Origin: Shigella phage Ag3
Reading direction: 5' to 3' (one strand)
DNA: 64,000 nt
Sequence record: FJ373894
Of this stretch, positions 18,189-50,128 are shown piece by piece. The notes under the pieces are model-generated. The model saw nothing but the letters and a program-made list of their open reading frames with translations. It did no database searches and was not told the DNA's origin. The translations under genes were made by a program, and so were the position numbers. How positions within the stretch are numbered: position 1 is the first letter of the stretch; each line of letters starts with the position of its first letter.

Positions 18189-18401
18189 GTGATCACTTCA
18201 GGCTACACCATCGACCTGTATTGTGAATGCTCCGACTGCAAATCATGTAGTTGGGCTTGGGAAGAACACCACCCCAAATGCGGGTTCAAGCAGTACTCTG
18301 GTGAGACTTGGGGTGAGTGTGTCAAACAGGCGCGAGCAGACGGCTGGCAAATCGGGCGTGACAGATATACCTGCTACGCCCCTGGCCACAAAAGAAGTTA
18401 A
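18189..18401 (+). CDS. possible small Cys-rich protein
   Basis: GTG start 18189; CECSDCKSC ... C ... C; weak RBS; 4-nt convergent overlap with next gene. Confidence 0.2.
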   Translation: MITSGYTIDLYCECSDCKSCSWAWEEHHPKCGFKQYSGETWGECVKQARADGWQIGRDRYTCYAPGHKRS

Positions 18402-19012
18402 GGCAATAGAAGTCCATCATCCCGCTCCGTTGGGGCGGGTTTAATCTCCTTCCGCATCTGTTCCTTCAGCACCCTGACGCGTTCGGCATGTCGGCGGTCT
18501 TGCATCTCCATATCCCGTTTCTTCTTCGACTTCAGCTCAAACTGTTTGCGGACATCCGGATCTTCACCTGGAACAAGATGCTCTTCAGTCCAGATAATGA
18601 ACTTCCAGTTCTTCTTGGCACACAGTTCACGGGTAGCCTCCCACTTGGCAGAGTTGACCAGCCAGGTTCGCATCGCATTGTTGAATGTCGACTCCTTCAT
18701 GTTCGGAGTCTTCTTCGGCTGCTTGATCTGGTCTTTGGGCTTGATCTCAATGAGGGTGACCTGCAGTTCCTCTTGCCCTTCACGGCGCGTCCAGACCTTG
18801 AGGTCCATGAAGTAACGATGGGTGCGCCCGTCGACTGGGGAAATGTAAGGGATTACAGTCTCCTCGCTCGACCACTTCACTATCGCGGAGTTCATATCAC
18901 AGAACTTGAAAGCCACCAACTCCAGCGAAGAGCGGAAGATGATGTTGTTCACATTCCCCTGATACTTCTTGGGATTAACCGGGGTGTATTTCCCCTGAAG
19001 ATAGTTGCTCAT
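18398..19012 (-). CDS. gp4-like head completion protein
   Basis: 204 aa; N-terminal pattern GKYTPVNPKKYQGNVNNIIFRSSLE...VKWSSEETVIPY...RYFMD...EIKP matches the T4 gp4/gp2 family signature as recalled. Confidence 0.5.
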   Translation of the reverse strand: MSNYLQGKYTPVNPKKYQGNVNNIIFRSSLELVAFKFCDMNSAIVKWSSEETVIPYISPVDGRTHRYFMDLKVWTRREGQEELQVTLIEIKPKDQIKQPKKTPNMKESTFNNAMRTWLVNSAKWEATRELCAKKNWKFIIWTEEHLVPGEDPDVRKQFELKSKKKRDMEMQDRRHAERVRVLKEQMRKEIKPAPTERDDGLLLP

Positions 19013-19062
19013 AATTTAGTCCTAAATAGCCATAACACTCTATCTATTTAAGGGCTGAGACC

Positions 19063-20031
19063 ATGTCCGACTTCAAAAAGACAATCGATAAGATCAAAGT
19101 TCTGAACACGAAGGGATTGTCCCAGGCTCAGAAGCAATTGACTTATCCCCTGGACGTCACTGGGGGTAAGACCCTGGGACACTATGTCCTATTCAACATC
19201 AACCGCATCTCCGGTTCATCTTACGGTGACACGGCTACCCAGACTGTCGAGAACCCAATACAGAATCCTCTGGGGAATACTCCTGTGGTCTATGGGTCCA
19301 AGTCTGGTTCCATCACCAAATATGCATGGGCGCGTCACGTTCGCTCGAACGAATCTATTGTTCTGTGTATGCCAGAGTCCATTACAACCAACTATGGCGT
19401 TGGCTGGAATGGCAGTGAGCTGGGGCTGGCTGGAATGGGGGCACAGTTCCTTTCCCGCGCCGCCCAAGACATGACTCAGTTTAAACTGGGTGATGCGCTC
19501 AACGTCGGGAAGGAGATGGGGCGATTCGCTGCCACCAAGGCCATTCAGTCGGCCTCTGAGTCTATTCCGTTCCTACCGACCATCAACGCCCATGACACCC
19601 TTGAGTTGTTCACAGGCACCATGACCAACCCGTATGTGGAGATGATCTTCCAGGGCGTCCGCAACCGTGAGATTCCATTTACATTCAAATTCACGCCGCG
19701 ATCTCAGAAGGAAGCCAAGATGGTCCGTGAGATCATCCGTCTGTTCAAGATGCACATGTACCCTGAGTACAAGTACAACAAGAACTCCAGTGCCTTCTAT
19801 CTGCATCCATCGACCTTTGATATCACGTTCATGGTCAATGGTGAGCGTAACCAATGGCTCCACCGCATCTCCACTTGTGTACTTTCCAACATGTTCGTCA
19901 ACGAGACGCCGGACAGTTCATACGCGGTTCACAAAGATGATGGTATCGTGTCCACGCAGGTTGACATGACCTTCATCGAACTGGAGCCTCTGCATAAAGG
20001 GCGCTTTGAAACCGAAGGCGATAGCTTCTAA
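19063..20031 (+). CDS. putative baseplate/tail structural protein
   Basis: 322 aa; heads an operon ending in a tape-measure-like gene; call by context only. Confidence 0.3.
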   Translation: MSDFKKTIDKIKVLNTKGLSQAQKQLTYPLDVTGGKTLGHYVLFNINRISGSSYGDTATQTVENPIQNPLGNTPVVYGSKSGSITKYAWARHVRSNESIVLCMPESITTNYGVGWNGSELGLAGMGAQFLSRAAQDMTQFKLGDALNVGKEMGRFAATKAIQSASESIPFLPTINAHDTLELFTGTMTNPYVEMIFQGVRNREIPFTFKFTPRSQKEAKMVREIIRLFKMHMYPEYKYNKNSSAFYLHPSTFDITFMVNGERNQWLHRISTCVLSNMFVNETPDSSYAVHKDDGIVSTQVDMTFIELEPLHKGRFETEGDSF

Positions 20032-20042
20032 GAGAGGATGCC

Positions 20043-20597
20043 ATGAAATATTTTGAGAAGTTTCCCCTTGTTTGGCATCAATTGCAAGATGTCCAAGAGA
20101 ATGACCAGGTGCTGTTACAGAACTTAACGCGCCGGGTAATGATCTTACAGAAAATTAAGGACATCGAAGGGCTTCTCCTGCCGTATACGATCCAAGAGGG
20201 GGAAACCCCAAGGTCTTTCGCAGAACGCGTTTACGGATCCTTCGAGTTGTTTTGGATACCTTGTCTGATAAACGGCATCATGGACATCAATAAGGACTGG
20301 CCGAAACCGGAACGTCGTATTGTTGAAGAACTGACTGCAGACTATGGCATCGATGGTATGTGGGATACAGCCTATTATGTCGACCAGTTCAACAATGTGA
20401 CCGACGCCCGTGCGATCAAATTTGCGTATAACCTGGACCTGGATGAGCCGTCCATAATTGCTAACTATGGTCTGACGGCAGTTTCATATCATGATGATGC
20501 AATCAGTAAGAACGAAGCCAAACGGAACATCCAAGTACTCGACCCAGATTATGTGTCTTCGTTTGTCAATCAGCTGGAGCAGGAGTTGGCGAAATGA
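20043..20597 (+). CDS. putative baseplate hub subunit (gp28-like by size and position)
   Basis: 184 aa; AGAGAGGA RBS; context only. Confidence 0.3.
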   Translation: MKYFEKFPLVWHQLQDVQENDQVLLQNLTRRVMILQKIKDIEGLLLPYTIQEGETPRSFAERVYGSFELFWIPCLINGIMDINKDWPKPERRIVEELTADYGIDGMWDTAYYVDQFNNVTDARAIKFAYNLDLDEPSIIANYGLTAVSYHDDAISKNEAKRNIQVLDPDYVSSFVNQLEQELAK

Positions 20598-21982
20598 TCG
20601 AAAACAGAGAGACCCAAGACGGTATTGTAACACCGTCAACAACATTTGACCTGAAGTATATGGCGATCCTCCCTCATACACCCCAGGGCGGAACACCAAC
20701 GCCATATGACCTGACGGCGTTGTTTGAGGAGTTCAACGTCTTCCAGGATCTGGGTCTTGAAGGGAAGTCATCTCCATCGCTTACAGCCAATGTCTTGATA
20801 AAAGAGGGGTGGGACATTCTGGACACAATGCCTATCTTGGGTGGTGAAGAAGTTGTGGTGTCATTCAAGAGTCCGGCGGCCTCGGATTACACCACTCTCT
20901 CCCTGCGCGTGGCGCGGGTAGGGCGCGTGGCCGATGAGTCCAACAGCTCGTCCAAGAAAGCATTCTGGTTGCACATGGTGACTACCGATGCCTACAAGGA
21001 CAGCATGATCCGCTGCTCCCTCGGTCTTGACGGTTCGTACTCTGACATGGCAAAGGTAATCTTCAATCAGCTGGAGTCGCGCACCAAGTTCGAAGACATC
21101 GACCCGTCATATGGCATTCAAGAGCGATTCGCCACCCCGCTCTGGCCTGTGCTGCGATCTATCGATTATATGGCGAGCCGTTCTTATGACGAATTGTTCA
21201 TGCCATTCGTTTTCTATGAAGACTTCAATGGCTATCACTTCAAGAGCCTGACGACGTTGTTCAACCAGGGAAGCCAGTCATTGACGGCAGAAGAGAAGCA
21301 GGAACTGGCTCAGCAGAACAAGTTATTCCGTGATCCTCAGGACGCACCGCTCATGCAGGATAACAACTTCAACTCTGAGCGTTTCATGCGCACTATCATT
21401 AAGGCAGAGAAGAAGCTGGCGCGTGACCAGTTCATGGCAAACTACCGTGATGTCCTAGCGGTGAACGAGCGTGTCTACGACTTTGAGACCAAGACAGTCA
21501 CCCCAACACAGCGCATCTACACTGAGTGGTTTGCAGAGACGGCTCACCTTGACCCATTCCCGATGTTCTCAGATGAATTCGATCGTCAGAACGTCCGTTA
21601 TATTGAAGCCCAACCGGATGGAGCGGAGCAGATTGATTATGCTCGTCGTGTTATCAACTTCAGTCTTGCCAGTACTGTGATGCGCGTGTTGCTCGTTGGT
21701 GATAACCGCCTGAACGTCGGCCAGGTATTCTACATCGAAGACCAGTCCAACCGTCCTAAGAAGAACGAAAACCTGGCAGAGTTAAGTAAGCTATCGACAG
21801 GCCACTATATCGTGACCAAAGTACGTCACAAGATTTCCCGCCTGACCAAAGATTATCAGTGCATCGCTGAGATTGCCAAGGACAGTTTGCTGGAGCAGGT
21901 GCTTCCACCTCAGACCAATCAGACAACTGCTTCCACCACTACTCCTCAGGCGATTGAGAAAGGCCAAGCACAGAAGGTTTAA
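20594..21982 (+). CDS. putative baseplate hub subunit (gp27-like by position)
   Basis: 462 aa; ATGA coupling; context only. Confidence 0.3.
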   Translation: MIENRETQDGIVTPSTTFDLKYMAILPHTPQGGTPTPYDLTALFEEFNVFQDLGLEGKSSPSLTANVLIKEGWDILDTMPILGGEEVVVSFKSPAASDYTTLSLRVARVGRVADESNSSSKKAFWLHMVTTDAYKDSMIRCSLGLDGSYSDMAKVIFNQLESRTKFEDIDPSYGIQERFATPLWPVLRSIDYMASRSYDELFMPFVFYEDFNGYHFKSLTTLFNQGSQSLTAEEKQELAQQNKLFRDPQDAPLMQDNNFNSERFMRTIIKAEKKLARDQFMANYRDVLAVNERVYDFETKTVTPTQRIYTEWFAETAHLDPFPMFSDEFDRQNVRYIEAQPDGAEQIDYARRVINFSLASTVMRVLLVGDNRLNVGQVFYIEDQSNRPKKNENLAELSKLSTGHYIVTKVRHKISRLTKDYQCIAEIAKDSLLEQVLPPQTNQTTASTTTPQAIEKGQAQKV

Positions 21983-21993
21983 CGAGGTGACCC

Positions 21994-23940
21994 ATGGCAC
22001 AGGAAGCAACGAACAATGATGTTGTCAAAGTTCTAGACAAGATCAAGGCGGAGATGATGCAGCGCAAACAACTCCGCGCTCAGAATGAAACCAACAAACA
22101 GCTTGACCGGATGAACAAGAATCTGGCCAAGCTGGAATCTGCTGCTAAACAGGACACCAAGGCCGAGTCCAAGCCATTTGAAATCCGCATCCCGACGGTC
22201 AATGAGATCGTCATGGGATTCGCTCGCATGTCTCCGATCTTCACCCGCGACTTCGGCGTGTGGATGAAGGATACCGTCGATGTGGGCAACGAAGGCAATC
22301 GGGAACTGGAGAACATCGCAGGCAAGATTGACCGCCTCGGTGAGATCACCCGCATGCCAACAGATGACACGTCCCTGGAGTATCTGAACCTCATCTCAGA
22401 TCAGTTGAAGTCGGCCAATGATGACAGCCTCAAGCGCATGGACGAGCAGAGCGTGTCTCTGGTCCGCGTGGGATCATTCCTGAACATGATCGACGGAGTG
22501 ATGATCGAGGTTCGTGATGATGTTGCTGAACTGAAAAAGAACTCCGACGACAGCCTTACTCGCTTGTCTAGCATTGAAGACAAGATTGGGCGCACGGGTG
22601 GTCATATCGTTGGAGCGCTGACACGCATCTTTGATGAAGACCAGAAGTGGCGTGAGAAGGACGAGATGCGCCGTGGGGAAACCGACAAAGAAACGGGTGG
22701 TCATCCTCAGGCGAGTTCTGTTATACCCAAAGACGATGACCAGAAAGACGATTCCTCCGGTATCGGGGCGGCGGTGGCGGCCATGCTTGGCCTGAATGCA
22801 CTGAAGGGATTCCTGCTCAAGCCATTCAAGATCATCGGCGGCGTTGTCGGGGCTTTCCTCGGTATGTTCTCCAAGCTGGGAGAAGGTATCACCAAACTTC
22901 TGGGTCCATTTGGGAAGGTGTTCAAGTTCCTGAAAGTCGGTCCACTGGCTCTTCTGTCTATGATCTGGGACTTCGGTAAAGGCTTCATTGATGCGAAGGA
23001 GATCCTGGGTAAAGGTGCTGTCACGATAGTTGACCGGGTACGGGCGGGCATATCCGAGTTGGTTGGCGGCTTTGGTGATCTATTTGACTGGGTGTCCAAG
23101 ATCTTTGGCTTCGATACAGAGGCGGGAGAAACCCTGCGCAAATACACCCTCATGCTCACTGAGGCTCCCGCTCGCTGGCTGAATGGTATTGTAGACTGGA
23201 TTAGTAACGACTTGTTTGCAGGGATCGGGAGAGGCACGTCTCTTACGGATATCCCCGGCAAGCTGGCAGACAACCTTCAGTCGGAATTGATGAAGCTGGT
23301 CGACTGGATCACAGGGGGTATCGGTAGTGTGATCGACGAGGGCATGGGTGTGGCCAACAAGGTCATTGACGATATCAAGAAGGGATTTGCTGAAAACGTG
23401 AAGAAGCCTTTCTTCAACATGCTGAACGCTATCACCAACGCGATGTTCGATATCGTTGACAAATTCGTCAGTATCATCCCAGACGCTCTGGGTGGACAGG
23501 CTGCGAAGCAGAAGATGGATGAGGCTCGCCAGTCTATGCTGATTGGCACTGATGAGAATCCGTCTCCTAATACGACAGCGGCCTCGCAGCCACAGACGCC
23601 ACCACAACCGAACATTGATCCACAAACGCTGACTCCGATACCTTCTGGTGTGTCTTCAGATTACAAGAATGTGACTGATGACCGCACCTCTCAGCTGAAA
23701 GATGCGTATGGTTCTATTGGGGGTGGTACTCTGGGTGGGGCTATGCCATCACAAGGGAGGGCGCTGTCTAATATTGAACAAGTGCAAGGCGGCTATTCAC
23801 CGCCTCCAGCCAGCGTCGTAATGCCAGTGCAGCAGAATGTGGATGCTTCTAAGAAGATCAACACGACCAATAACTTCAACAGCTCATCCCTTGAGCCTGA
23901 GAACAAAACAGATAATTCCCGCATCCTGTGGGAATGGTAA
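21994..23940 (+). CDS. putative tail tape measure/baseplate hub protein (gp29-like)
   Basis: 648 aa; N-terminal coiled coil, Gly-rich hydrophobic middle (GIGAAVAAMLGLNALKGFLLKPFKIIGGVVGAFLGMF), Pro/Thr-rich C-terminal part. Confidence 0.4.
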   Translation: MAQEATNNDVVKVLDKIKAEMMQRKQLRAQNETNKQLDRMNKNLAKLESAAKQDTKAESKPFEIRIPTVNEIVMGFARMSPIFTRDFGVWMKDTVDVGNEGNRELENIAGKIDRLGEITRMPTDDTSLEYLNLISDQLKSANDDSLKRMDEQSVSLVRVGSFLNMIDGVMIEVRDDVAELKKNSDDSLTRLSSIEDKIGRTGGHIVGALTRIFDEDQKWREKDEMRRGETDKETGGHPQASSVIPKDDDQKDDSSGIGAAVAAMLGLNALKGFLLKPFKIIGGVVGAFLGMFSKLGEGITKLLGPFGKVFKFLKVGPLALLSMIWDFGKGFIDAKEILGKGAVTIVDRVRAGISELVGGFGDLFDWVSKIFGFDTEAGETLRKYTLMLTEAPARWLNGIVDWISNDLFAGIGRGTSLTDIPGKLADNLQSELMKLVDWITGGIGSVIDEGMGVANKVIDDIKKGFAENVKKPFFNMLNAITNAMFDIVDKFVSIIPDALGGQAAKQKMDEARQSMLIGTDENPSPNTTAASQPQTPPQPNIDPQTLTPIPSGVSSDYKNVTDDRTSQLKDAYGSIGGGTLGGAMPSQGRALSNIEQVQGGYSPPPASVVMPVQQNVDASKKINTTNNFNSSSLEPENKTDNSRILWEW

Positions 23941-24606
23941 TCAGATTCCGTGGGCTTGTATTAGCTCACGGAGTCTCTGTTTTGAATATGTTGTATCCTC
24001 ATCCGGAACTACAGCATTCGTCTTCCTGAGCAGGAAAGCCTCAGAGTTCCAGTAGACGTCCTCCCGCAGCTGGGTGTCATACAGGTGGATGAACCCCACT
24101 ATCTTGTTCAGACCAACCAGGAACCACATCGGGAACCGCTTGGTGATGATGTCTGTCAGCAGCGCCGGGTGCCCCTGGCCTGTACCCTTCACATAATCAA
24201 TGAACGTCAGGTTGCGCTCTTTGATGGCCGGGATCATCTCCCTCTCGAACTCCTCAAGGAAGTTGTATGTGAAGTTGTCGTATAGCTTGCGATATTCATC
24301 ATAATTCGATTGCGCCTGGCGGGTAAGCAATGTTGTTACCCAGGTCTTTGGTGATTTGATGAAGTTGGCGATGATGTAATTCTCTACCACTTCACCCTGG
24401 GATGTTTCGAACCGACGAGCCAGGCGAGCAAACTGTTTGCACACGGCTTCCTTCGCCAAGAAGGTTTCGAACTTGTAGTTCATCGGTCCATACAAACTGT
24501 AGTCGAAGTCCTTGGTGGTGAAGTGCAGCTTGATCGCCATGAAGACACAGTAAACGTTGAACGCCCGTTCAAACTGCATTTTTTCCCAATCGGTATACTC
24601 ACGCAT
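23941..24606 (-). CDS. gp59-like helicase loader
   Basis: 221 aa (T4 gp59 about 217); N-terminal hydrophobic/aromatic pattern similar to T4 gp59 as recalled; moderate. Confidence 0.4.
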   Translation of the reverse strand: MREYTDWEKMQFERAFNVYCVFMAIKLHFTTKDFDYSLYGPMNYKFETFLAKEAVCKQFARLARRFETSQGEVVENYIIANFIKSPKTWVTTLLTRQAQSNYDEYRKLYDNFTYNFLEEFEREMIPAIKERNLTFIDYVKGTGQGHPALLTDIITKRFPMWFLVGLNKIVGFIHLYDTQLREDVYWNSEAFLLRKTNAVVPDEDTTYSKQRLRELIQAHGI

Positions 24607-25294
24607 TTTTCATTTCCTCGAAAAACTTAACCCAATTCTCATCATTGTACGGCACCCATCCTTTTTGAAATCTTTGTATGCAACTTTTGGCGGTCATTTC
24701 GGCGCGATCTACCCCCAATTCCTTGGCCATCGTTACATTTCGACATATGCCCAACCTGGCACCATCGGCTACCCACCAATCATAGAATACTCCTGCCAAA
24801 GCCCAATATTTGCGGGTATGCTTCGCATTTGGACTCTCCCAAGGCTTTGAATGGATTTGTTTTAATTTGGAACGTTGTGAATCTGATTTGGGTCTGTCCA
24901 TCAGCGAATCGGAAATTTTCGATCTGTGTTCGCGGGATAACGCCACCCCCTTGAATCTTTCACTGCATTTTCGTTTAAACTCTGGAGTGCTGTTGGCTGC
25001 CTTCATCCTTTCCCATTTTCTGAGAGCAAACTCTTCATATTGGCGTGAAGTTTGTGATTTTGATCTATTTCTCATCAAAGAAAAGATTTTCACGTATGCA
25101 GGGGACATACTGAATATCTTGGCCAAAAGTTTGTGAACTATGAAATGCTCCCGAGCAGTTAGAACAGCAATATTCTCCGCAGTATCACTCCCTCCCAAGC
25201 TCCTGGGTTCTCTATGGTGTCTTTCTGAATACCCAATCAGATTGCGAGAATAAGACCTTTCAAGGATAGAAAACAACGCTCGGGTGTAGTTCAT
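24599..25294 (-). CDS. HNH homing endonuclease
   Basis: HNH motif ERHHREPRSLGGSDTAENIAVLTAREH; paralogous to ORF 55663..56355 (shared MNY.., GYSE.HH..P..GGSD, KPWESP, GWNP motifs). Confidence 0.75.
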   Translation of the reverse strand: MNYTRALFSILERSYSRNLIGYSERHHREPRSLGGSDTAENIAVLTAREHFIVHKLLAKIFSMSPAYVKIFSLMRNRSKSQTSRQYEEFALRKWERMKAANSTPEFKRKCSERFKGVALSREHRSKISDSLMDRPKSDSQRSKLKQIHSKPWESPNAKHTRKYWALAGVFYDWWVADGARLGICRNVTMAKELGVDRAEMTAKSCIQRFQKGWVPYNDENWVKFFEEMKNA

Positions 25295-28079: not shown

Positions 28080-28618
28080 GAACCCTCCGCCCAAACAAAG
28101 CCGTATTTGTTCAGTAGATCCACAGTTTCACCACGGGCGCGAGCCACGATGGATTCTACTGTTTCTTCCACCTCGAGTGGCGGGCAACCAGCCTTTTCGT
28201 ACGTGTTAAGCAAGAGAGCAAGTTCTTTTACGAACCCCTTTTGTTCCTCTCTTCCAAAGAACCACATCCGCAGATCGTCACGTTCCCCGTGCTTGTTCAG
28301 AGAAGCCATATTCGCGTACACGTAATCGTTTTTCTGAACAACGCCATTTATCTCCGGCCAATGCAACCCAGTCATCGCATAATTGAAGAATTCCGAAGGG
28401 GTGACTTCATCCGACAAATAATACAAACGGAAGTCACCGCTGGGACCATGTTTGCAAGTTCTATCCAGCATTATTGTGTGGATGTCCACGCGATTGCGGT
28501 AAGATATGAATTTCCGTTTTCTTCTACGTAAAAATTTCAGAGTAAAGTGGATTGTGCCGATCGTTACCATGGCTTGTATGGTGTACGCGAGGATGTCGTA
28601 TTTGTCAAGAATGATCAT
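28076..28618 (-). CDS. membrane-anchored protein (N-terminal TM helix plus globular domain)
   Basis: 180 aa; TM AYTIQAMVTIGTIHFTLKFL then RRRKRK; GGGGGA RBS; first gene of a four-gene translationally coupled chain. Confidence 0.45.
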   Translation of the reverse strand: MIILDKYDILAYTIQAMVTIGTIHFTLKFLRRRKRKFISYRNRVDIHTIMLDRTCKHGPSGDFRLYYLSDEVTPSEFFNYAMTGLHWPEINGVVQKNDYVYANMASLNKHGERDDLRMWFFGREEQKGFVKELALLLNTYEKAGCPPLEVEETVESIVARARGETVDLLNKYGFVWAEGS

Positions 28619-28629
28619 AAGATCCCCCG

Positions 28630-28655
28630 AAATGAATGAGGGGCTTTCGCCCCTC
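28630..28655 (-). terminator. terminator-like hairpin downstream of 28661..29269
   Basis: GAGGGGC-GAAA-GCCCCTC (GNRA loop) on the minus strand followed by ATTCATTTC. Confidence 0.45.
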
Positions 28656-28660
28656 CAATG

Positions 28661-29269
28661 TTATTTGCTCAGGCTGGCGAGGTAGTTGTCAGCTTCGATA
28701 GACGACGGGCTGTTAGCTGAGTAGCTCGAATCAGCGATTTCGGTTTCGCGCAGGATAGCATCAATATCGATGGTGGTCATGCCAGCGGCATAATCGATAT
28801 CTTCAGGGAGCACCAGACCCAGGTCGTTCGTCTCTTTTTGAACACGAACCAGCTCGAGGTTGGACTTCACTTCGTCCAGTTTGTCACCCAGCTGGATGAT
28901 CGCACCGTTCAGTTTGTCGCTGCTTGCTTCGATGTCCTTCACCTGAGCCAACAGGGCTTCGCCAATACGACGGCGATGCAGGACAATCAGGGCGTCGGCG
29001 CGGGTTGGCGTGACACCGCGAGCGATGGCGTCCTTCAGAACCTGCTCGCGCTTGGCGGCTTCGCCCAGGTTCTGTTCTGCGGTCTTCTTCAGCTTGACGC
29101 CGTTGCGAACGTTGGCGACACGGGCTTCTTCCAGGCGGCGGATTTCATCAGACAGCTTGCGAGCAGCCAGGTTCAGGCGCTTTTCGGTGCCGGTCAGTTT
29201 GTCCAGGCCTGTAGTGACGTTGGCTTCAACAGTGGTGAAGATGCGTTTCAGTAAATTTTTCAGTGACAT
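28661..29269 (-). CDS. coiled-coil protein, possible PspA/IM30-like
   Basis: 202 aa; N-terminus NLLKRIFTTVEANVTTGLDKL and extended heptad-like coiled coil resemble PspA ([22 protein letters not shown]) in pattern only. Confidence 0.3.
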   Translation of the reverse strand: MSLKNLLKRIFTTVEANVTTGLDKLTGTEKRLNLAARKLSDEIRRLEEARVANVRNGVKLKKTAEQNLGEAAKREQVLKDAIARGVTPTRADALIVLHRRRIGEALLAQVKDIEASSDKLNGAIIQLGDKLDEVKSNLELVRVQKETNDLGLVLPEDIDYAAGMTTIDIDAILRETEIADSSYSANSPSSIEADNYLASLSK

Positions 29270-29284
29270 TAGTGTAATCCTCAG

Positions 29285-29626
29285 TTATTTCTTCGGGGGT
29301 TTAATTGAGGTGAAAGAATCCTTCCAACTCTTGAATTGTTCAACCAGGGCTTCTTTACCCAGCTCGCCATTTGACACGCTGTGAACGTAGGCGAATGCTC
29401 CATAGCCGGATCCTGGCATAGCCTTGCAGATGCGCAGACTGACCAAAGACTCGCCCACAGAAACAAGGTAATGGTCGCGGCGATTGTTCATGGCATAGTG
29501 GTTGTCGTGAAACTTGTCGATAACAACACAGTTCTGAGGTTCGACGTCAATCGGTAGCCCGTTGGCTTCGGATCCACCGCGCCCAAGCACGCAGCCTGGG
29601 AATAATGTTTCTACGAGTGTGGTCAT
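29285..29626 (-). CDS. hypothetical protein
   Basis: 113 aa; TATAAT about 30 nt upstream; AAGGAAC RBS. Confidence 0.45.
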   Translation of the reverse strand: MTTLVETLFPGCVLGRGGSEANGLPIDVEPQNCVVIDKFHDNHYAMNNRRDHYLVSVGESLVSLRICKAMPGSGYGAFAYVHSVSNGELGKEALVEQFKSWKDSFTSIKPPKK

Positions 29627-29654
29627 GGTCTGTTCCTTCTGTAAGTTCCCATGT

Positions 29655-29660
29655 ATTATA
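29655..29660 (-). promoter_or_regulatory. sigma70-type -10 element (TATAAT) for 29285..29626
   Basis: Exact TATAAT on minus strand about 29 nt upstream of ATG, inside near-palindrome CCCATATAATACATGGG; -35 weak. Confidence 0.3.
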
Positions 29661-29680
29661 TGGGTGAATCGTTTAATGAA

Positions 29681-30031
29681 TTATTTGTTATGAAATCCCA
29701 AAGCCTTGCGGACTTCTTCACGGTGTTTCTGCTCTTTCTGAGCCTCTGTGCGATTAATCCGGCGATTGTGATGTCGGACGAGAGCTTTGTACACAGCCTT
29801 GGCTTCATGGTGAGGCAGGCAATCTGTGTGATAACCAATATCGACTGTGTAGCCTGAACAGCTGTTGACCGTGTAAGCATACACTTTGACGCCGTTATAG
29901 ATCACAGCATCGATCCCAACCAGTCGCTCTCCGTTCCATTCAACGTCATCGGCGTCAATGGCATCGATTAGACAACGGATTTCGGCGCTCAGTGGTGGTA
30001 TACAGAACAACCAGTTGATAAACTTGATCAT
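29681..30031 (-). CDS. hypothetical protein
   Basis: 116-aa ORF in operon context. Confidence 0.45.
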   Translation of the reverse strand: MIKFINWLFCIPPLSAEIRCLIDAIDADDVEWNGERLVGIDAVIYNGVKVYAYTVNSCSGYTVDIGYHTDCLPHHEAKAVYKALVRHHNRRINRTEAQKEQKHREEVRKALGFHNK

Positions 30032-30032
30032 G

Positions 30033-30248
30033 TCACTTCCTCATCAGTGAGAGCAGGTTGACCGCAGCCGGACGCGCATCAGGGGCGTAGAAGACGTCCT
30101 GAGAGTGCCTCTTACAGCACGGGCAGTCCTTCGTGGCGATTACACAGGGAGCCTTGCTTACGGCAAATCCGGCGGCTTCGGCTTCCTTCACGGTGGTGAA
30201 TGGCAGGTAAGCACTTGTACCCTGCCCTCCGCATGAACATTCCATCAA
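30033..30248 (-). CDS. small Cys-rich (putative zinc-binding) protein
   Basis: 71 aa; CSCGG ... C ... CPCC; start ATG 30245 or TTG 30248. Confidence 0.4.
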   Translation of the reverse strand: MMECSCGGQGTSAYLPFTTVKEAEAAGFAVSKAPCVIATKDCPCCKRHSQDVFYAPDARPAAVNLLSLMRK

Positions 30249-30361
30249 CGTTTCCTCTTAAAGGGGATGATCAGAGCTATGATGACAAGCATAGCTGTAA
30301 TCACCCCGCATGCTATCAGACCAAAGGCGAACGACTTCAGAACAAACTCAATCAAATTCAT
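30245..30361 (-). CDS. possible 38-aa membrane peptide
   Basis: MNLIEFVLKSFAFGLIACGVITAMLVIIALIIPFKRKR; ATGA overlap with upstream gene stop; not in ORF track. Confidence 0.25.
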   Translation of the reverse strand: MNLIEFVLKSFAFGLIACGVITAMLVIIALIIPFKRKR

Positions 30362-42532: not shown

Positions 42533-42552
42533 AAGCCCTCCGAAGAGGGCTT
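42533..42552. terminator. bidirectional intrinsic terminator between convergent genes
   Basis: AAGCCCTC-CGAA-GAGGGCTT perfect 8-bp stem; A-run upstream (U-tract for the minus-strand gp32 transcript), T-containing tract downstream. Confidence 0.55.
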
Positions 42553-42557
42553 GTTCA

Positions 42558-43589
42558 TTAGTTAGACTTGAGGTACTGCTCGAAGTCGTCGATGGAAGCC
42601 GTGTTCTTGGCGTCCGGTGTAGACTGAGACTGAATTTGAGTCTGAGTCTGTGACGGCGCGGCCTGCTGTTGTTTCAGGCTGTCTTGAGCAGTTGGCTGCT
42701 GGTGAGCAGTCTGGGTGTTAGGGGCATGTGCCATCGTGGCCGCACCACCTTCAACCAGAGGCTGGTCATCAGGGATTGCCAGAACTTTACGCAGGCGCTT
42801 TTCCAGAGAGTCGTAGTCTTTGAAGTTAGCCGGATTGAAGAATTCAAACAGGCTGTGTTCACGAGACCAGACGTCTTCCATATACGCTTCGTCATCACTC
42901 AGCGGGGCAGGATTCTCCCACACCACCTTACTGAAGTTGGCCACCAGACCTTCCCAGTTCCCAAACTTCTTCTGCTCACCAAAGAGCTTCAGGTTCAGGT
43001 TGGCACCTTCCCACAGATCGAACGGATCGAATTTAGGGTCGGTTGGGAATTTCGGGTTCTGCGCCTGATCCAGGATTTTCTTGATGGCGTTACCAAACTC
43101 CAGCAGGAAGACCTTGCCGTTGTTTTCTGGTACGTTGACATCGTTGATCACCAGGATGTTGGCGTAGTATTTGGTGTCAGGCAGACGTTTCTTCAGGATG
43201 TCCTTCAGCTTTTCGTCGTTCGTTTCTTTCTGTTGCGCCCACAGCGGACGGTCATGGTCGCGCACCGGATCGTCGTTGCCGAACGTCTGAGGTGAGTTCT
43301 CAATGTACCAACCACCAGGTCCCTGGAACTGATGCTTCATGATCATGGCGCAAGGGGTCAGGATCTGATCTTTATCGATCGTTCCTTCTTCCTGTGCCTT
43401 GAGGTCTACCAGCGGGACTGGCAGGAAGCGGATGGTGTTCTCGGAGATGCCATCTTTGTTCCAAGTCCATTTCCAGATGCGAGGATCCTTCTGGAAGCCG
43501 GACTTCTGGCCTTGCTGTGCAAGACGCGCCTGCATTGCGTCAGTTTGCTGGCCACGGGACGCTTTCAGACGATCGAATAAATTACCCAT
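42558..43589 (-). CDS. single-stranded DNA-binding protein (T4 gp32-like)
   Basis: 343 aa; TIRFLPVP, YYANILVINDVNVPENNGKVFLLEFG, LWEGANLNLKLFG match gp32 signatures (IRFLP, YWANILVVKD..PENEGKVF, WEGANF.LK); acidic C-terminus. Confidence 0.8.
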   Translation of the reverse strand: MGNLFDRLKASRGQQTDAMQARLAQQGQKSGFQKDPRIWKWTWNKDGISENTIRFLPVPLVDLKAQEEGTIDKDQILTPCAMIMKHQFQGPGGWYIENSPQTFGNDDPVRDHDRPLWAQQKETNDEKLKDILKKRLPDTKYYANILVINDVNVPENNGKVFLLEFGNAIKKILDQAQNPKFPTDPKFDPFDLWEGANLNLKLFGEQKKFGNWEGLVANFSKVVWENPAPLSDDEAYMEDVWSREHSLFEFFNPANFKDYDSLEKRLRKVLAIPDDQPLVEGGAATMAHAPNTQTAHQQPTAQDSLKQQQAAPSQTQTQIQSQSTPDAKNTASIDDFEQYLKSN

Positions 43590-47207: not shown

Positions 47208-47356
47208 TGTTTGAAACTGATTTACTATCCTACTTCGTGATGTGTGATGAATTGAAGTTACACGGCTATAGCATATTTGAAATCAACGAGTCGATGCCGT
47301 GGCATCTTGACTTGTTAACCGAAGCCCTCAAGGTCAGGTTGTCTAAGAAACAGTAA
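47207..47356 (+). CDS. possible 49-aa protein
   Basis: ATG overlaps upstream stop (TAATG); ends 1 nt before a strong terminator; not in ORF track. Confidence 0.25.
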   Translation: MFETDLLSYFVMCDELKLHGYSIFEINESMPWHLDLLTEALKVRLSKKQ

Positions 47357-47380
47357 TCCCGCTTCGGCGGGATTTTTATT
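47356..47380 (+). terminator. intrinsic terminator
   Basis: ATCCCGC-TTCG-GCGGGAT hairpin (UUCG loop) followed by TTTTTATT. Confidence 0.65.
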
Positions 47381-49400: not shown

Positions 49401-49781
49401 ATGAAAGAGTACAAAGATGTCGATCTGAAGTTCGGCATGCACCCGGTGACCAAAGATGTCACCATGAAATCAGGCGTATACGCTGTCTTGCAATCTGTGC
49501 GGAATATTGTCATGTCTTCAGTCGGTGACTGGCCCACTTATCCTGGGATCGGCGCAGGGCTGTATAATCTCCTTGGAGAGAACACCACCCCAACGATTCA
49601 GGTAGATGTGAAGAACAAAGTTGAAGATGCTATTGCTCTGTATGAACCGCGAGCCGAGGTAGAAGAAGTCACGGTGAGTCTGTCAGAGGATTACCATTCT
49701 CTGGGTGTGACCATCACATTCTATGTGGTCAACAATCCAGATCCAATAACAGACACCGTGTGGTTGAAAAGGACGAATTAG
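49401..49781 (+). CDS. baseplate wedge protein (gp25-like)
   Basis: 126 aa; YEPRAEVEEVTVSL...GVTITFYVVNNPDPI matches gp25 pattern (YEPRI..L.V.V...Y.L.V.I.F.VIDNPD). Confidence 0.7.
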   Translation: MKEYKDVDLKFGMHPVTKDVTMKSGVYAVLQSVRNIVMSSVGDWPTYPGIGAGLYNLLGENTTPTIQVDVKNKVEDAIALYEPRAEVEEVTVSLSEDYHSLGVTITFYVVNNPDPITDTVWLKRTN

Positions 49782-50128
49782 AATTTCGTCCTGAATGCCG
49801 GAGCCACGACCAGCATAAAGTGGCTCAATAACCTGAACATCTCTTTACCGTTGAAGTGGTAGAGGATAATCATCGGTCTGACGTCAACCACTGATCCCTC
49901 CAGCTTCTTGTTCAACACAAATCTGGAACCGACACTGACCTTCCCACGCTCTTCGTCTCCTGGTTTGTCGTAGACCACGCAACTGGTGGCATAACCGATC
50001 TGAGTTCCATCCTCAGACCGCAATGGTAGCATGTGCCCTTCAGACATCAGATGATGCAGGTTCTGGTATAAACCTTTGTCTGGTATGGGGACTGCCAGCT
50101 GCATTCTCAACTCTTTGTAATCTTGCAT
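49778..50128 (-). CDS. hypothetical protein
   Basis: 116-aa ORF, convergent with the gp25-like gene (4-nt overlap). Confidence 0.4.
   Translation of the reverse strand: MQDYKELRMQLAVPIPDKGLYQNLHHLMSEGHMLPLRSEDGTQIGYATSCVVYDKPGDEERGKVSVGSRFVLNKKLEGSVVDVRPMIILYHFNGKEMFRLLSHFMLVVAPAFRTKF

Follow-up and report, generated by a model that had tools for sequence, protein, structure and literature searches.

A conserved hairpin of intrinsic-terminator type within the last codons of a gp59-like gene, at a zero-spacer convergent junction of Shigella phage Ag3

How can two convergent transcription units end when their last genes leave no space between them? This question is raised by a junction in the genome of Shigella phage Ag3 (sequence record FJ373894), an Agtrevirus of the Ackermannviridae and a ViI-like phage, of which we analyzed a stretch of 64,000 nucleotides, hereafter the window. 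On the plus strand, an open reading frame at 21994..23940 (648 aa), whose product is tape-measure-like, ends with a TAA stop codon at 23938-23940. On the minus strand, an open reading frame at 23941..24606 (221 aa), whose product is gp59-like, ends with a TGA that reads tca on the plus strand at 23941-23943. The spacer between them is 0 nt and the convergent stop codons abut directly. This geometry had been noticed in a first, sequence-only reading of the window, and it is borne out by the list of open reading frames, by the sequence itself and by the annotation of Shigella phage ChubbyThor (99% identity to the window), where both CDS are present and abut likewise. That reading had also proposed that such a junction leaves no room for a terminator, so that the late and early transcripts would read into each other as antisense RNA, a proposal that holds only in part, as detailed below.

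The abutment recurs among the relatives, and the junction itself is present in at least 266 members of the family. The orthologous junction has a 0-nt spacer in Agtrevirus, Limestonevirus, Kuttervirus and a metagenomic locus (L046), a 1-nt spacer in Erwinia phage phiEa2809 and a 2-nt spacer in Taipeivirus and Serratia phage phiMAM1, and it reaches 36-39 nt in the Vibrio members of the Ackermannviridae. The comparisons were restricted to such loci, and 60 distant gp59 loci from IMG/VR (22-34% identity) were kept outside them. The window contains a second zero-spacer convergent junction (49778-81), where a hairpin spans the stop codons as well, and other units end in canonical hairpin-plus-T-tract terminators, located at 42533-42552 and 47355-47374.

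The identity of the minus-strand gene, the last of a replication-gene unit running from the ligase to gp59, is supported by profile comparisons. Its product matches PHROG 269, 'DNA helicase loader', with an E value of 7e-62, and a profile built from seven gp59-like proteins of the Ackermannviridae matches T4 gp59 (PDB 1C1K) with an E value of 1.4e-8. The latter match is nearly full length, as it covers profile positions 15-216 and residues 18-214 of the 217 in the chain. As a single sequence, the protein gave no match in Pfam or NCBIfam and no true match in the PDB, where only spurious SH2-domain matches were returned, while a tblastn search with it found matches in cyanophage gp59 genes. The genes located upstream on the same strand, which encode a DNA ligase, a gp41-type primase-helicase and UvsX/RecA, are also those of a replication unit. 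We thus refer to 23941..24606 as a gp59-type DNA helicase loader gene.

The identity of the plus-strand gene has weaker support than that of gp59, and a tape-measure function is plausible. Its product returned no match in the Pfam, NCBIfam and PDB searches; the best family is phrog_3799, matched over the full length and devoid of assigned function, and the tape-measure family phrog_4200 is matched weakly (E 3.9e-5, residues 267-499). The ChubbyThor record lists the same gene as a putative tape measure, and the orthologous product of LIMEstone1, ORF027, was identified as a virion protein by mass spectrometry, with 7 peptides and 15.7% coverage (PMC3296691). Its placement is also in keeping with this function, as it closes a putative late baseplate/hub operon on the plus strand, after a gp48-like gene (19063..20031), a gp53-like gene (20043..20597) and a hub gene (20594..21982) that directly precedes it. 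Upstream of the gp48-like gene, a TAAATA at 19023..19028 on the plus strand is predicted to be the -10 element of a late promoter. An identical TAAATA stands at the same place in LIMEstone1, where it is annotated as a 'putative late promoter', and this element is likely the start of the predicted transcript discussed here. No enrichment was observed for the T4 late-promoter octamer TATAAATA, which has 2 matches.

Where, then, would this late transcript end? An intrinsic terminator is a stable, usually G+C-rich stem-loop, followed by a U-rich tract and located 3' of the last stop codon of a unit. Intergenic space is indeed absent here, as the first reading had stated; on the late strand, however, a terminator-type element was found inside the 3' end of the gp59 coding sequence, and it is a stable stem-loop 3' of the last stop codon of the plus-strand cluster. 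This element, termed hairpin A, occupies 23943..23976 on the plus strand, with a 5' arm at 23943-23956, a 6-nt loop at 23957-23962 and a 3' arm at 23963-23976. It comprises 14 pairs, seven of them G-C and two G·U, and a terminator scan, in which it ranked first in 10 kb, assigned to it the tail CTGTTTTG. It starts 2 nt past the tape-measure TAA and, with its tail, spans 2-45 nt past this stop codon, within the last 12-14 codons of gp59. The hairpin is the complement of the gp59 codons R-L-R-E-L-I-Q-A-H-G-I and the U-rich tail, CUGUUUUG at 23977..23984 on the plus strand, that of S-K-Q; read on the other strand, the same 42 nt give the C-terminal residues SKQRLRELIQAHGI. With the last bases of the stem, the tail reads UCUCUGUUUU, in which 7 of the 10 positions are U and the tract is interrupted. 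The tails of the relatives are clearer than that of the window in Kuttervirus (UUUUCCUUU(C/U)G), Taipeivirus (UUUAUUUUUGG) and phiMAM1 (UUUUUUCCUU); the tract is poor and interrupted in L003 (CACUUUCG), and there is none on the plus strand in phiEa2809. The fold of the plus strand reaches -23.6 kcal/mol (z -5.2), and none of 200 shuffled sequences was as stable. Among 42,634 windows of 50 nt scored on both strands, it is approximately the 21st most stable non-overlapping one, about 20 others being at least as stable. A search of 23500-24400 against Rfam, at E values up to 1, returned no family.

Since this sequence also encodes the end of a protein, its conservation could be that of the gp59 C-terminal peptide only, or the hairpin could be due to chance. 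The peptide (L/F)RE(L/M)Ix(A/S/T)HGI is indeed conserved, and T4 gp59 has a C terminus that aligns with it. The synonymous sites, however, argue strongly against this explanation. The fraction of synonymous differences falls to 0.04-0.09 in the last 11-13 codons of gp59, against a median of 0.43 for the gene; the lowest four of 211 sliding windows are those that cover hairpin A, in which the CGT, GAG, CAC and GGA codons never vary. The 3' end of the tape-measure gene shows normal synonymous variation (0.42-0.47). In 19 sequences drawn from Agtrevirus, Limestonevirus, Kuttervirus and Taipeivirus, the hairpin arms ATTCCGTGGG and CTCACGGA never change; gp59 protein identity across these four genera is only 75-97%. 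Base pairing is maintained in 94.9% of the cells of the stem alignment, versus 29-54% in slid controls. Two pairs show compensatory changes (G-C/A-U and C-G/A-U/U·G) and a further one goes from U·G to U-A, so that gp59 residues vary together with pairing kept: I (ATC/ATT) with R/K, A/S/T with L/M, and L with F. This covariation represents few independent events, in three or four clades, and variation is absent from 10 of the 14 pairs. In phiMAM1, the upper stem is re-registered and a hairpin followed by UUUUUU is still formed, and in the phiEa2809 lineage and L046, a hairpin of another sequence lies at the same position. Lineages with another peptide and another sequence thus keep a hairpin there, which, together with the shuffling result, leaves a purely peptide-based or fortuitous conservation disfavored and barely credible. 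A plus-strand open reading frame overlapping the element (23837..24055) is an unlikely source of the conservation as well, since the 2-nt insertion between the stop codons of Taipeivirus and phiMAM1 would shift its frame. It was also considered whether the C terminus of gp59 is an extension that grew over an ancestral terminator; this was rejected, for its alignment with those of the Vibrio homologues and of T4 gp59 stops no more than 3 residues short of the end. As the same 42 nt appear to code for both a hairpin on the plus-strand RNA and the gp59 C terminus, this sequence is best described as being under a double constraint, in which hairpin and peptide have co-evolved.

The site is already known as a predicted terminator in related genomes, where it was called twice independently. 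In LIMEstone1 (HE600015), a 'putative factor-independent terminator' is annotated at 23283..23323, in the orientation of the tape-measure gene and within the gp59 CDS, and corresponds exactly to the orthologous hairpin plus its tail; the terminators of this genome were called with TransTerm and Mfold (PMC3296691). In Escherichia phage KWBSE43-6 (MK373783), the core hairpin is annotated as a terminator at 42944..42969 from an ARNOLD prediction (-12.1). These two features share with the window an orthologous sequence, the junction, the strand and the location within gp59, and the window copy differs from them at a few tail positions; they are software predictions deposited in genome records, and carry no conservation analysis. 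In ChubbyThor, the closest relative, the 50 kb of the record that were examined carry no terminator annotation at the site. Further away in the family, the Vibrio phages K471 and SD25 possess textbook bidirectional terminators in the 39- and 36-nt spacers of their ligase-gp59/tape-measure-hub junctions. Like these, and like the terminator at 42533-42552 of the window, hairpin A sits at the end of a unit and has U's 3' of its stem on the late strand. Unlike them, it has no spacer and is contained wholly within a coding sequence, its stem is longer but weaker per pair (two G·U pairs and a 6-nt loop), its U-tract is interrupted and no A-tract adjoins it. We consider it somewhat more probable than not that two units meet at this junction, and that hairpin A serves the late operon as a factor-independent terminator or, failing that, as an element that forms 3' ends.

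What happens to the transcript coming from the opposite direction is less clear-cut, as terminator scanning, synonymous variation and folding revealed no convincing or conserved terminator for it in the 3' region of the tape-measure gene. The nearest candidate is hairpin B (23915..23935 on the plus strand), a lineage-specific stem of 9 bp with a 3-nt loop in the last tape-measure codons. The minus-strand version contains an A·C mismatch that weakens it, precedes UAUCUGUUUUGUUCU and is no more stable, at -8.7 kcal/mol, than shuffled sequences (z 0.02). It is absent from Kuttervirus and most other relatives, and the codons that contain it show normal synonymous variation, so that it was rejected as a conserved gp59 terminator and would be, at best, a weak and non-conserved candidate. 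Two terminator-like sites farther into the tape-measure gene, at 23164 and 22761 on the minus strand, are weak, and such sites occur at about the frequency expected by chance (12 versus 8.6 ± 2.7). A C-rich stretch of the minus-strand RNA (23680-23800, with a plus-strand GC skew of +0.24 to +0.32) is too weak to be retained as a Rho loading site. As no convincing terminator was found on this strand, antisense read-through of the gp59 transcript into the tape-measure gene is possible. The mutual read-through that had been proposed from the sequence would thereby be reduced largely to this one direction, the conserved hairpin arguing against it in the other.

Could hairpin A itself end both transcripts? 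On the minus strand it also folds, at -16.7 kcal/mol (z -6.4). In E. coli, overlapping bidirectional terminators are reportedly driven by RNA polymerase collisions, a finding ascribed to Ju et al. in 2019 and to Wang et al. in 2023. By analogy, a hairpin present in both RNAs could pause the polymerases, fix their point of collision and terminate both units. Several features of the junction agree with such a collision- or pause-type bidirectional terminator: a convergent pair with a hairpin exactly at its boundary, the folding of both strands, the lack of a separate gp59 terminator in the 3' region of the tape-measure gene and the case of phiEa2809, whose hairpin has no U-tract on the plus strand, only a weak U-rich stretch on the minus strand, and an equal stability on both. 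Collision-based termination at convergent gene pairs of E. coli is documented (bioRxiv 10.1101/2022.10.23.513370; review PMC13500782), and the geometry fits. In that class, the genes are co-expressed and their 3' ends overlap at an element that forms a hairpin, which need not resemble a strong intrinsic terminator. The strand asymmetry of the element, however, points elsewhere. Two G·U pairs make the hairpin more stable on the plus strand than on the minus strand. Across the four genera, each of the 10 distinct sequences favors the plus strand, by 3.4-9.9 kcal/mol, and L046 shows the same bias (-23.4 versus -13.4). It is only in phiMAM1 and phiEa2809 that the two strands are about equally stable; for the other 11 of the 13 distinct sequences that were folded, the minus-strand hairpin is the weaker one, by 3-10 kcal/mol. 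The mid-stem G·U pair is moreover invariant, even though the corresponding A·C mismatch on the minus strand could be mended synonymously, in the Ala/Ser/Thr codon. There are two such mismatches in the minus-strand hairpin of the window, followed by AAUCUGAUU, in which 4 of 9 positions are U, which departs from a canonical bidirectional terminator. The nearest A-tract (23905-23908) is located about 35 nt away, beyond hairpin B, and this lack of an adjacent A-tract makes a function in the reverse direction doubtful. In addition, the U-rich tails are conserved on the plus side only, hairpin A lies inside translated codons for the minus strand, and a collision mechanism requires both units to be active simultaneously. 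Hence, in contrast to the E. coli collision terminators, the conserved tail and the strand bias would point to ordinary one-way intrinsic termination, and a collision-type terminator appears unlikely.

One further aspect of the location of hairpin A deserves attention, namely its proximity to a stop codon. In a study of the E. coli tR2 terminator, intrinsic terminators placed very near a stop codon were found to be repressed by the ribosome (Li et al. 2016, PMC4824070). The situation is similar here, as hairpin A closely follows a stop codon, at a distance of a few nt, on one strand, and on the other is contained in the end of an open reading frame; that work made use of a synthetic reporter, whereas hairpin A is a natural element, and its bearing on late phage transcription is one of analogy. 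With only 2 nt between the stop and the hairpin, the latter could be kept from forming by a ribosome that completes the tape-measure protein, and it may therefore be leaky on the plus strand. The view of the first reading, in which the junction effectively terminates neither transcript and both run on into the opposite genes as long antisense RNAs, could draw on such a repression, on the zero spacer and on the absence of a convincing minus-strand terminator downstream of gp59. It is nonetheless difficult to reconcile with the strong purifying selection, across genera, on a plus-strand hairpin with a U-rich tail at the position expected of a terminator, with the unmistakable terminator at the same junction in the Vibrio relatives and with the two independent predictions in GenBank, and we hold it to be quite improbable.

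The preferred explanation, one-way termination of the late operon, can be formulated as follows. At this junction, the late plus-strand baseplate-hub/tape-measure operon would meet the minus-strand replication-gene unit that ends with the gp59-type loader, and the terminator would have been kept, folded into the gp59 coding sequence rather than lost. The plus-strand RNA is predicted to form the 14-bp hairpin 2 nt past the tape-measure stop, followed by the U-rich tract that extends to 23984, and the host RNA polymerase transcribing the late operon would end there. That it does so, and with what efficiency, we infer from the sequence and its conservation; a literature search found no usable transcriptome or RNA 3'-end data for the Ackermannviridae or Kuttervirus. 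The gp59 transcript would probably enter the tape-measure gene for some distance as untranslated antisense RNA, before being halted by Rho, by collision with a late polymerase or by weak termination at hairpin A.

If the hairpin works in this way, the overlap between the late transcript and the gp59 mRNA would be limited to about 40-45 nt, which leads to consider a role after transcription. It is known that mRNAs can be protected by stable 3' hairpins. Hairpin A, whose selected structure sits on the plus-strand RNA, could be mainly a 3' stabilizer of a processed late mRNA; alternatively, the complementary nt shared by the two mRNAs, provided that termination occurs at the tail, could form a duplex of about 40 nt that would be cut by RNase III, shutting down the gp59 mRNA late in infection. 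A terminator explains the same data plus the conserved U-rich tail, and nothing speaks specifically for a post-transcriptional element, which we see as a rather remote prospect. Equally speculative, and granted little weight here, is the idea that hairpin A acts as a timing device, in which an efficiency dependent on the translation of the two genes, together with the RNA overlap or with head-on polymerase collisions at the hairpin, would switch off the helicase loader once late transcription starts.

The case is a neat but ordinary one, and it opens no new biological question. It brings a correction to the way in which such junctions are read: convergent phage genes at zero distance may still carry a terminator, overprinted on the last codons of the neighboring gene. 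It also provides a small and clean example of dual coding, where mutual constraints tie an RNA hairpin to a protein C terminus. This is useful for genome annotation as well as for the recoding and engineering of these phages, which are therapeutic candidates, since a synonymous recoding of the 3' end of gp59 would destroy the predicted signal.

The two genes that meet at this junction converge and touch at their stop codons, as the sequence-only reading had described and as both the sequence and the ORF coordinates confirm. The tape-measure-like ORF (648 aa, 21994..23940, plus strand) ends with a TAA stop at 23938-23940, and the gp59-like ORF (221 aa, 23941..24606, minus strand) with a TGA stop that appears as tca at 23941-23943; the plus strand reads ...TGG TAA/TCA GAT TCC..., the boundary lying between TAA and TCA. 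Over a query of ~3 kb around the junction, identity to Shigella phage ChubbyThor (Ackermannviridae, Aglimvirinae, Agtrevirus), whose annotation carries both genes at relative coordinates identical to those of the window, is 99%; for other phages of Agtrevirus and Limestonevirus it is 82-98%. In many close relatives, the match is limited to 69-76% of this query, and an HNH/homing-endonuclease ORF (24599-25294, minus strand; PHROG 655, E 2.6e-54) that in the window lies immediately upstream of gp59, with an 8-nt overlap at the gp59 start, is missing. Because of these relatives without the insert, this ORF looks like a mobile insertion. Further along, the window has ~1.65 kb more than ChubbyThor at about 28600-30360, which shifts the downstream coordinates relative to that phage; the minus-strand ORFs of this extra region (28661..29269, 29285..29626 and 29681..30031) match phrogs 1203, 5022 and 8918, with no function assigned.

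Judging from its sequence relationships, the minus-strand gene is a real gp59-type helicase loader. This label, already proposed for the gene, is borne out by a match to PHROG 269 (E 7e-62) and by a profile built from seven members of the family, which matches the sequence of the T4 gp59 crystal structure 1C1K over almost its whole length (E 1.4e-8). A tblastn search with the protein also retrieves annotated gp59 genes in Vibrio phages and cyanophages, while the single sequence is too divergent to give any Pfam, NCBIfam or direct PDB match. The tape-measure-like label is reasonable, though not as firm: over its full length, the protein matches phrog_3799 (function not assigned), the match to the tape-measure family phrog_4200 is weak (E 3.9e-5), and no match was found among solved structures or curated families (Pfam, NCBIfam, PDB). 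The gene comes after gp48-like, gp53-like and hub genes in this order, and the LIMEstone1 orthologue of its product was detected in virions by mass spectrometry (PMC3296691).

It had also been proposed that this geometry leaves no room for a terminator, so that late and early transcripts would read into each other as antisense. For the late (plus) strand this does not hold, since a conserved hairpin with a U-rich tail is located 2-45 nt past the TAA, within gp59. This hairpin (23943..23976, plus strand), hereafter hairpin A, is the top site of a terminator scan over 10 kb; it starts 2 nt past the tape-measure stop and reads AGATTCCGTGGGCT-TGTATT-AGCTCACGGAGTCT, then CTGTTTTG, the U-tract being imperfect. 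With its tail, it takes up the strand opposite the final 14 codons of gp59, SKQRLRELIQAHGI. The plus-strand RNA folds at -23.6 kcal/mol (z -5.2; 0 of 200 shuffles equally good), and the reverse-strand RNA is weaker (-16.7 kcal/mol), because A·C mismatches take the place of the two G·U pairs. Hairpin A ranks about 21st among non-overlapping 50-nt windows (42,634 windows scored, both strands); stability by itself does not make it distinctive. In a 121-nt plus-strand fold, the upstream CAAAACAGA (23904-23912) pairs with the terminator tail UCUGUUUUG (23977-23985), enclosing hairpin A and a second stem-loop in the last codons of the tape-measure gene (hairpin B, 23915-23935). This long-range helix is present in the closest relatives only and, if formed, would sequester the terminator U-tract.

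Conservation at the junction was examined in an alignment of 19 genomes from Agtrevirus, Limestonevirus, Kuttervirus-like and Taipeivirus phages, in which the gp59 proteins are 75-97% identical and the stop codons are spaced by 0 nt or 2 nt. The hairpin arms ATTCCGTGGG and CTCACGGA do not vary in any of the 19, whereas the neighbouring coding sequence varies normally. In sliding windows (codon-wise test), the fraction of synonymous differences has a gene median of 0.43 but falls to 0.04-0.09 over the last 11-13 codons of gp59, and the four windows spanning the hairpin are the lowest of all 211. No comparable suppression is seen at the tape-measure 3' end (0.42-0.47), which confines the constrained element to the gp59 side. 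When a 14-pair stem is imposed on the alignment, 94.9% of the cells are paired, against 29-54% with the partners slid; 10 of the 14 pairs are without any variation, two show two-sided changes (G-C/A-U and C-G/A-U/U·G) and one shows a one-sided change from U·G to U-A. At the codon level, Ile ATC/ATT (synonymous) changes in step with Arg AGA/Lys AAA, as does Ala GCC/Ser TCC/Thr ACC with Leu CTA/Met ATG, and Leu CTC to Phe TTC converts the U·G pair into U-A; the gp59 peptide is thus being adjusted for the stem to survive. Since few independent evolutionary events are involved, this covariation is supporting rather than decisive evidence. The G·U in the middle of the stem never changes, even though the matching mismatch on the minus strand could be mended by a synonymous substitution at the third codon position. 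The plus-strand RNA is more stable than its counterpart by 3.4-9.9 kcal/mol in each of the 10 distinct sequences that represent the four genera of the alignment, as it also is in the metagenomic locus L046; in phiMAM1 and phiEa2809, stability is about equal on both strands. The invariant G·U and the consistent plus-strand excess point to selection acting on the plus-strand transcript, not on the gp59 mRNA or a DNA cruciform.

Orthologues of hairpin A are already annotated as predicted terminators, and elements of this kind are well known. The GenBank record of LIMEstone1 carries a 'putative factor-independent terminator' at 23283..23323, on the tape-measure strand and within the gp59 CDS, whose sequence is the exact orthologous hairpin plus 7 nt of tail; the corresponding paper lists 31 terminator predictions from TransTerm and Mfold (PMC3296691). 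The core hairpin is likewise annotated as an ARNOLD terminator (-12.1) in the KWBSE43-6 record. The dual-coding detail at the gp59 3' end is neat rather than surprising. In the LIMEstone1 record, the gp48-like gene is also preceded by an annotated late promoter (TAAATA) and the gp59-ending unit by a middle promoter, with no terminator annotated after gp59. In the window, two TAAATA motifs stand back to back where the head-completion and gp48-like genes diverge across a 50-nt gap (19023-19028, plus strand, and 19045-19050, minus strand), and they match the 'putative late promoters' of LIMEstone1 exactly in both sequence and position; of the full T4 octamer TATAAATA, the window has only two copies.

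In the proposed mechanism, the host RNA polymerase, redirected by phage late factors, would start near 19030, transcribe the gp48-like, gp53-like, hub and tape-measure genes, and reach the hairpin and U-tract 2-45 nt beyond the TAA, leaving a late RNA whose overlap with the gp59 mRNA would be only about 40-45 nt. As a possible late factor, ChubbyThor has a gene annotated as a gp33-like 'late promoter transcription accessory'; a literature search for an Ackermannviridae transcriptome found none. The hairpin structure, its position and the selection on it are shown; that termination takes place at hairpin A, though possibly not in full, we infer. In E. coli, the terminator tR2 is almost fully repressed at 8-9 bp from a stop codon and reaches an efficiency of about 0.9 only beyond 30 bp, and repression also affects terminators situated late in an ORF (PMC4824070). 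Compared with tR2, hairpin A is 2 nt from the stop on one strand and within the last codons on the other, and by analogy with these position effects it may be leaky or translation-dependent.

For the gp59 (minus) transcript, hairpin B followed by UAUCUGUUUUGUUCU was considered as a candidate terminator and rejected as a conserved element: it is weak (-8.7 kcal/mol, z 0.02), limited to the closest relatives and without synonymous constraint. Within the tape-measure gene, the remaining minus-strand matches of the scan are about as frequent as expected by chance, and for these reasons antisense read-through from gp59 into the tape-measure gene is possible. This transcript could be ended by Rho acting on untranslated RNA, a modest C-rich stretch being present at 23680-23800. 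Alternatively, polymerases that collide or pause at the hairpin could end it, as for convergent gene pairs in E. coli.

Across Ackermannviridae, the order in which ligase ... gp59 faces tape measure-hub is kept. Serratia phiMAM1 (2-nt spacer) has a homologous hairpin whose upper stem is re-registered, then UUUUUUCCUU; the hairpin found at the equivalent position in Erwinia phiEa2809 (1-nt spacer; no U-tract on the plus strand of the junction) and in L046 (0 nt) differs in sequence. Textbook bidirectional terminators occupy the same junction in Vibrio phages K471 (AAAAACCCCCTAGGA...TCCTAGGGGGTTTT, 39-nt spacer) and SD25 (AAAAAGCCCCAG...CTGGGGCTTTTT, 36-nt spacer). Vibrio phage YC (Campanilevirus) has a different solution: an extra small ORF after gp59 runs with its 3' end 18 nt into the convergent tape-measure gene (locus L025, 3481-3498), and no obvious hairpin was seen at this junction. 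From these comparisons, a transcription stop at the gp59/tape-measure junction looks like a family trait, placed within gp59 in the enterobacterial branch. A hairpin carried by an added gp59 tail is ruled out, as the C terminus aligns with the Vibrio proteins and T4 gp59 to within 3 residues of the end; the hairpin is thus written into an ancestral part of the protein.

Other units of the window end with canonical terminators, each a hairpin plus a T-tract: one in the 26-nt spacer of a convergent pair (42533-42552), another at 47355-47374. A further possible terminator within a convergent gene is a GC-rich plus-strand hairpin, CCCGCTCCGTTGGGGCGGG (18421-18439, then TTTAAT), about 235 nt beyond the end of the last plus-strand gene (18186) and within the 3' end of the minus-strand head-completion gene (18398..19012). 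Convergent genes meet without a spacer at a second site, between a gp25-like baseplate wedge gene (49401..49781, plus strand) and a minus-strand ORF (49778..50128; phrog_6103, function not assigned), whose stop codons overlap in TTAG at 49778-49781, in the loop of an 8-bp hairpin (AGGACGAA/UUCGUCCU, 49770-49792) with a UUUUC tail on the minus strand. Given the comparable arrangements at 49778-49781 and 18421-18439, stop signals embedded in the last codons of a neighbour seem to be routine in the compact genome of Ag3.
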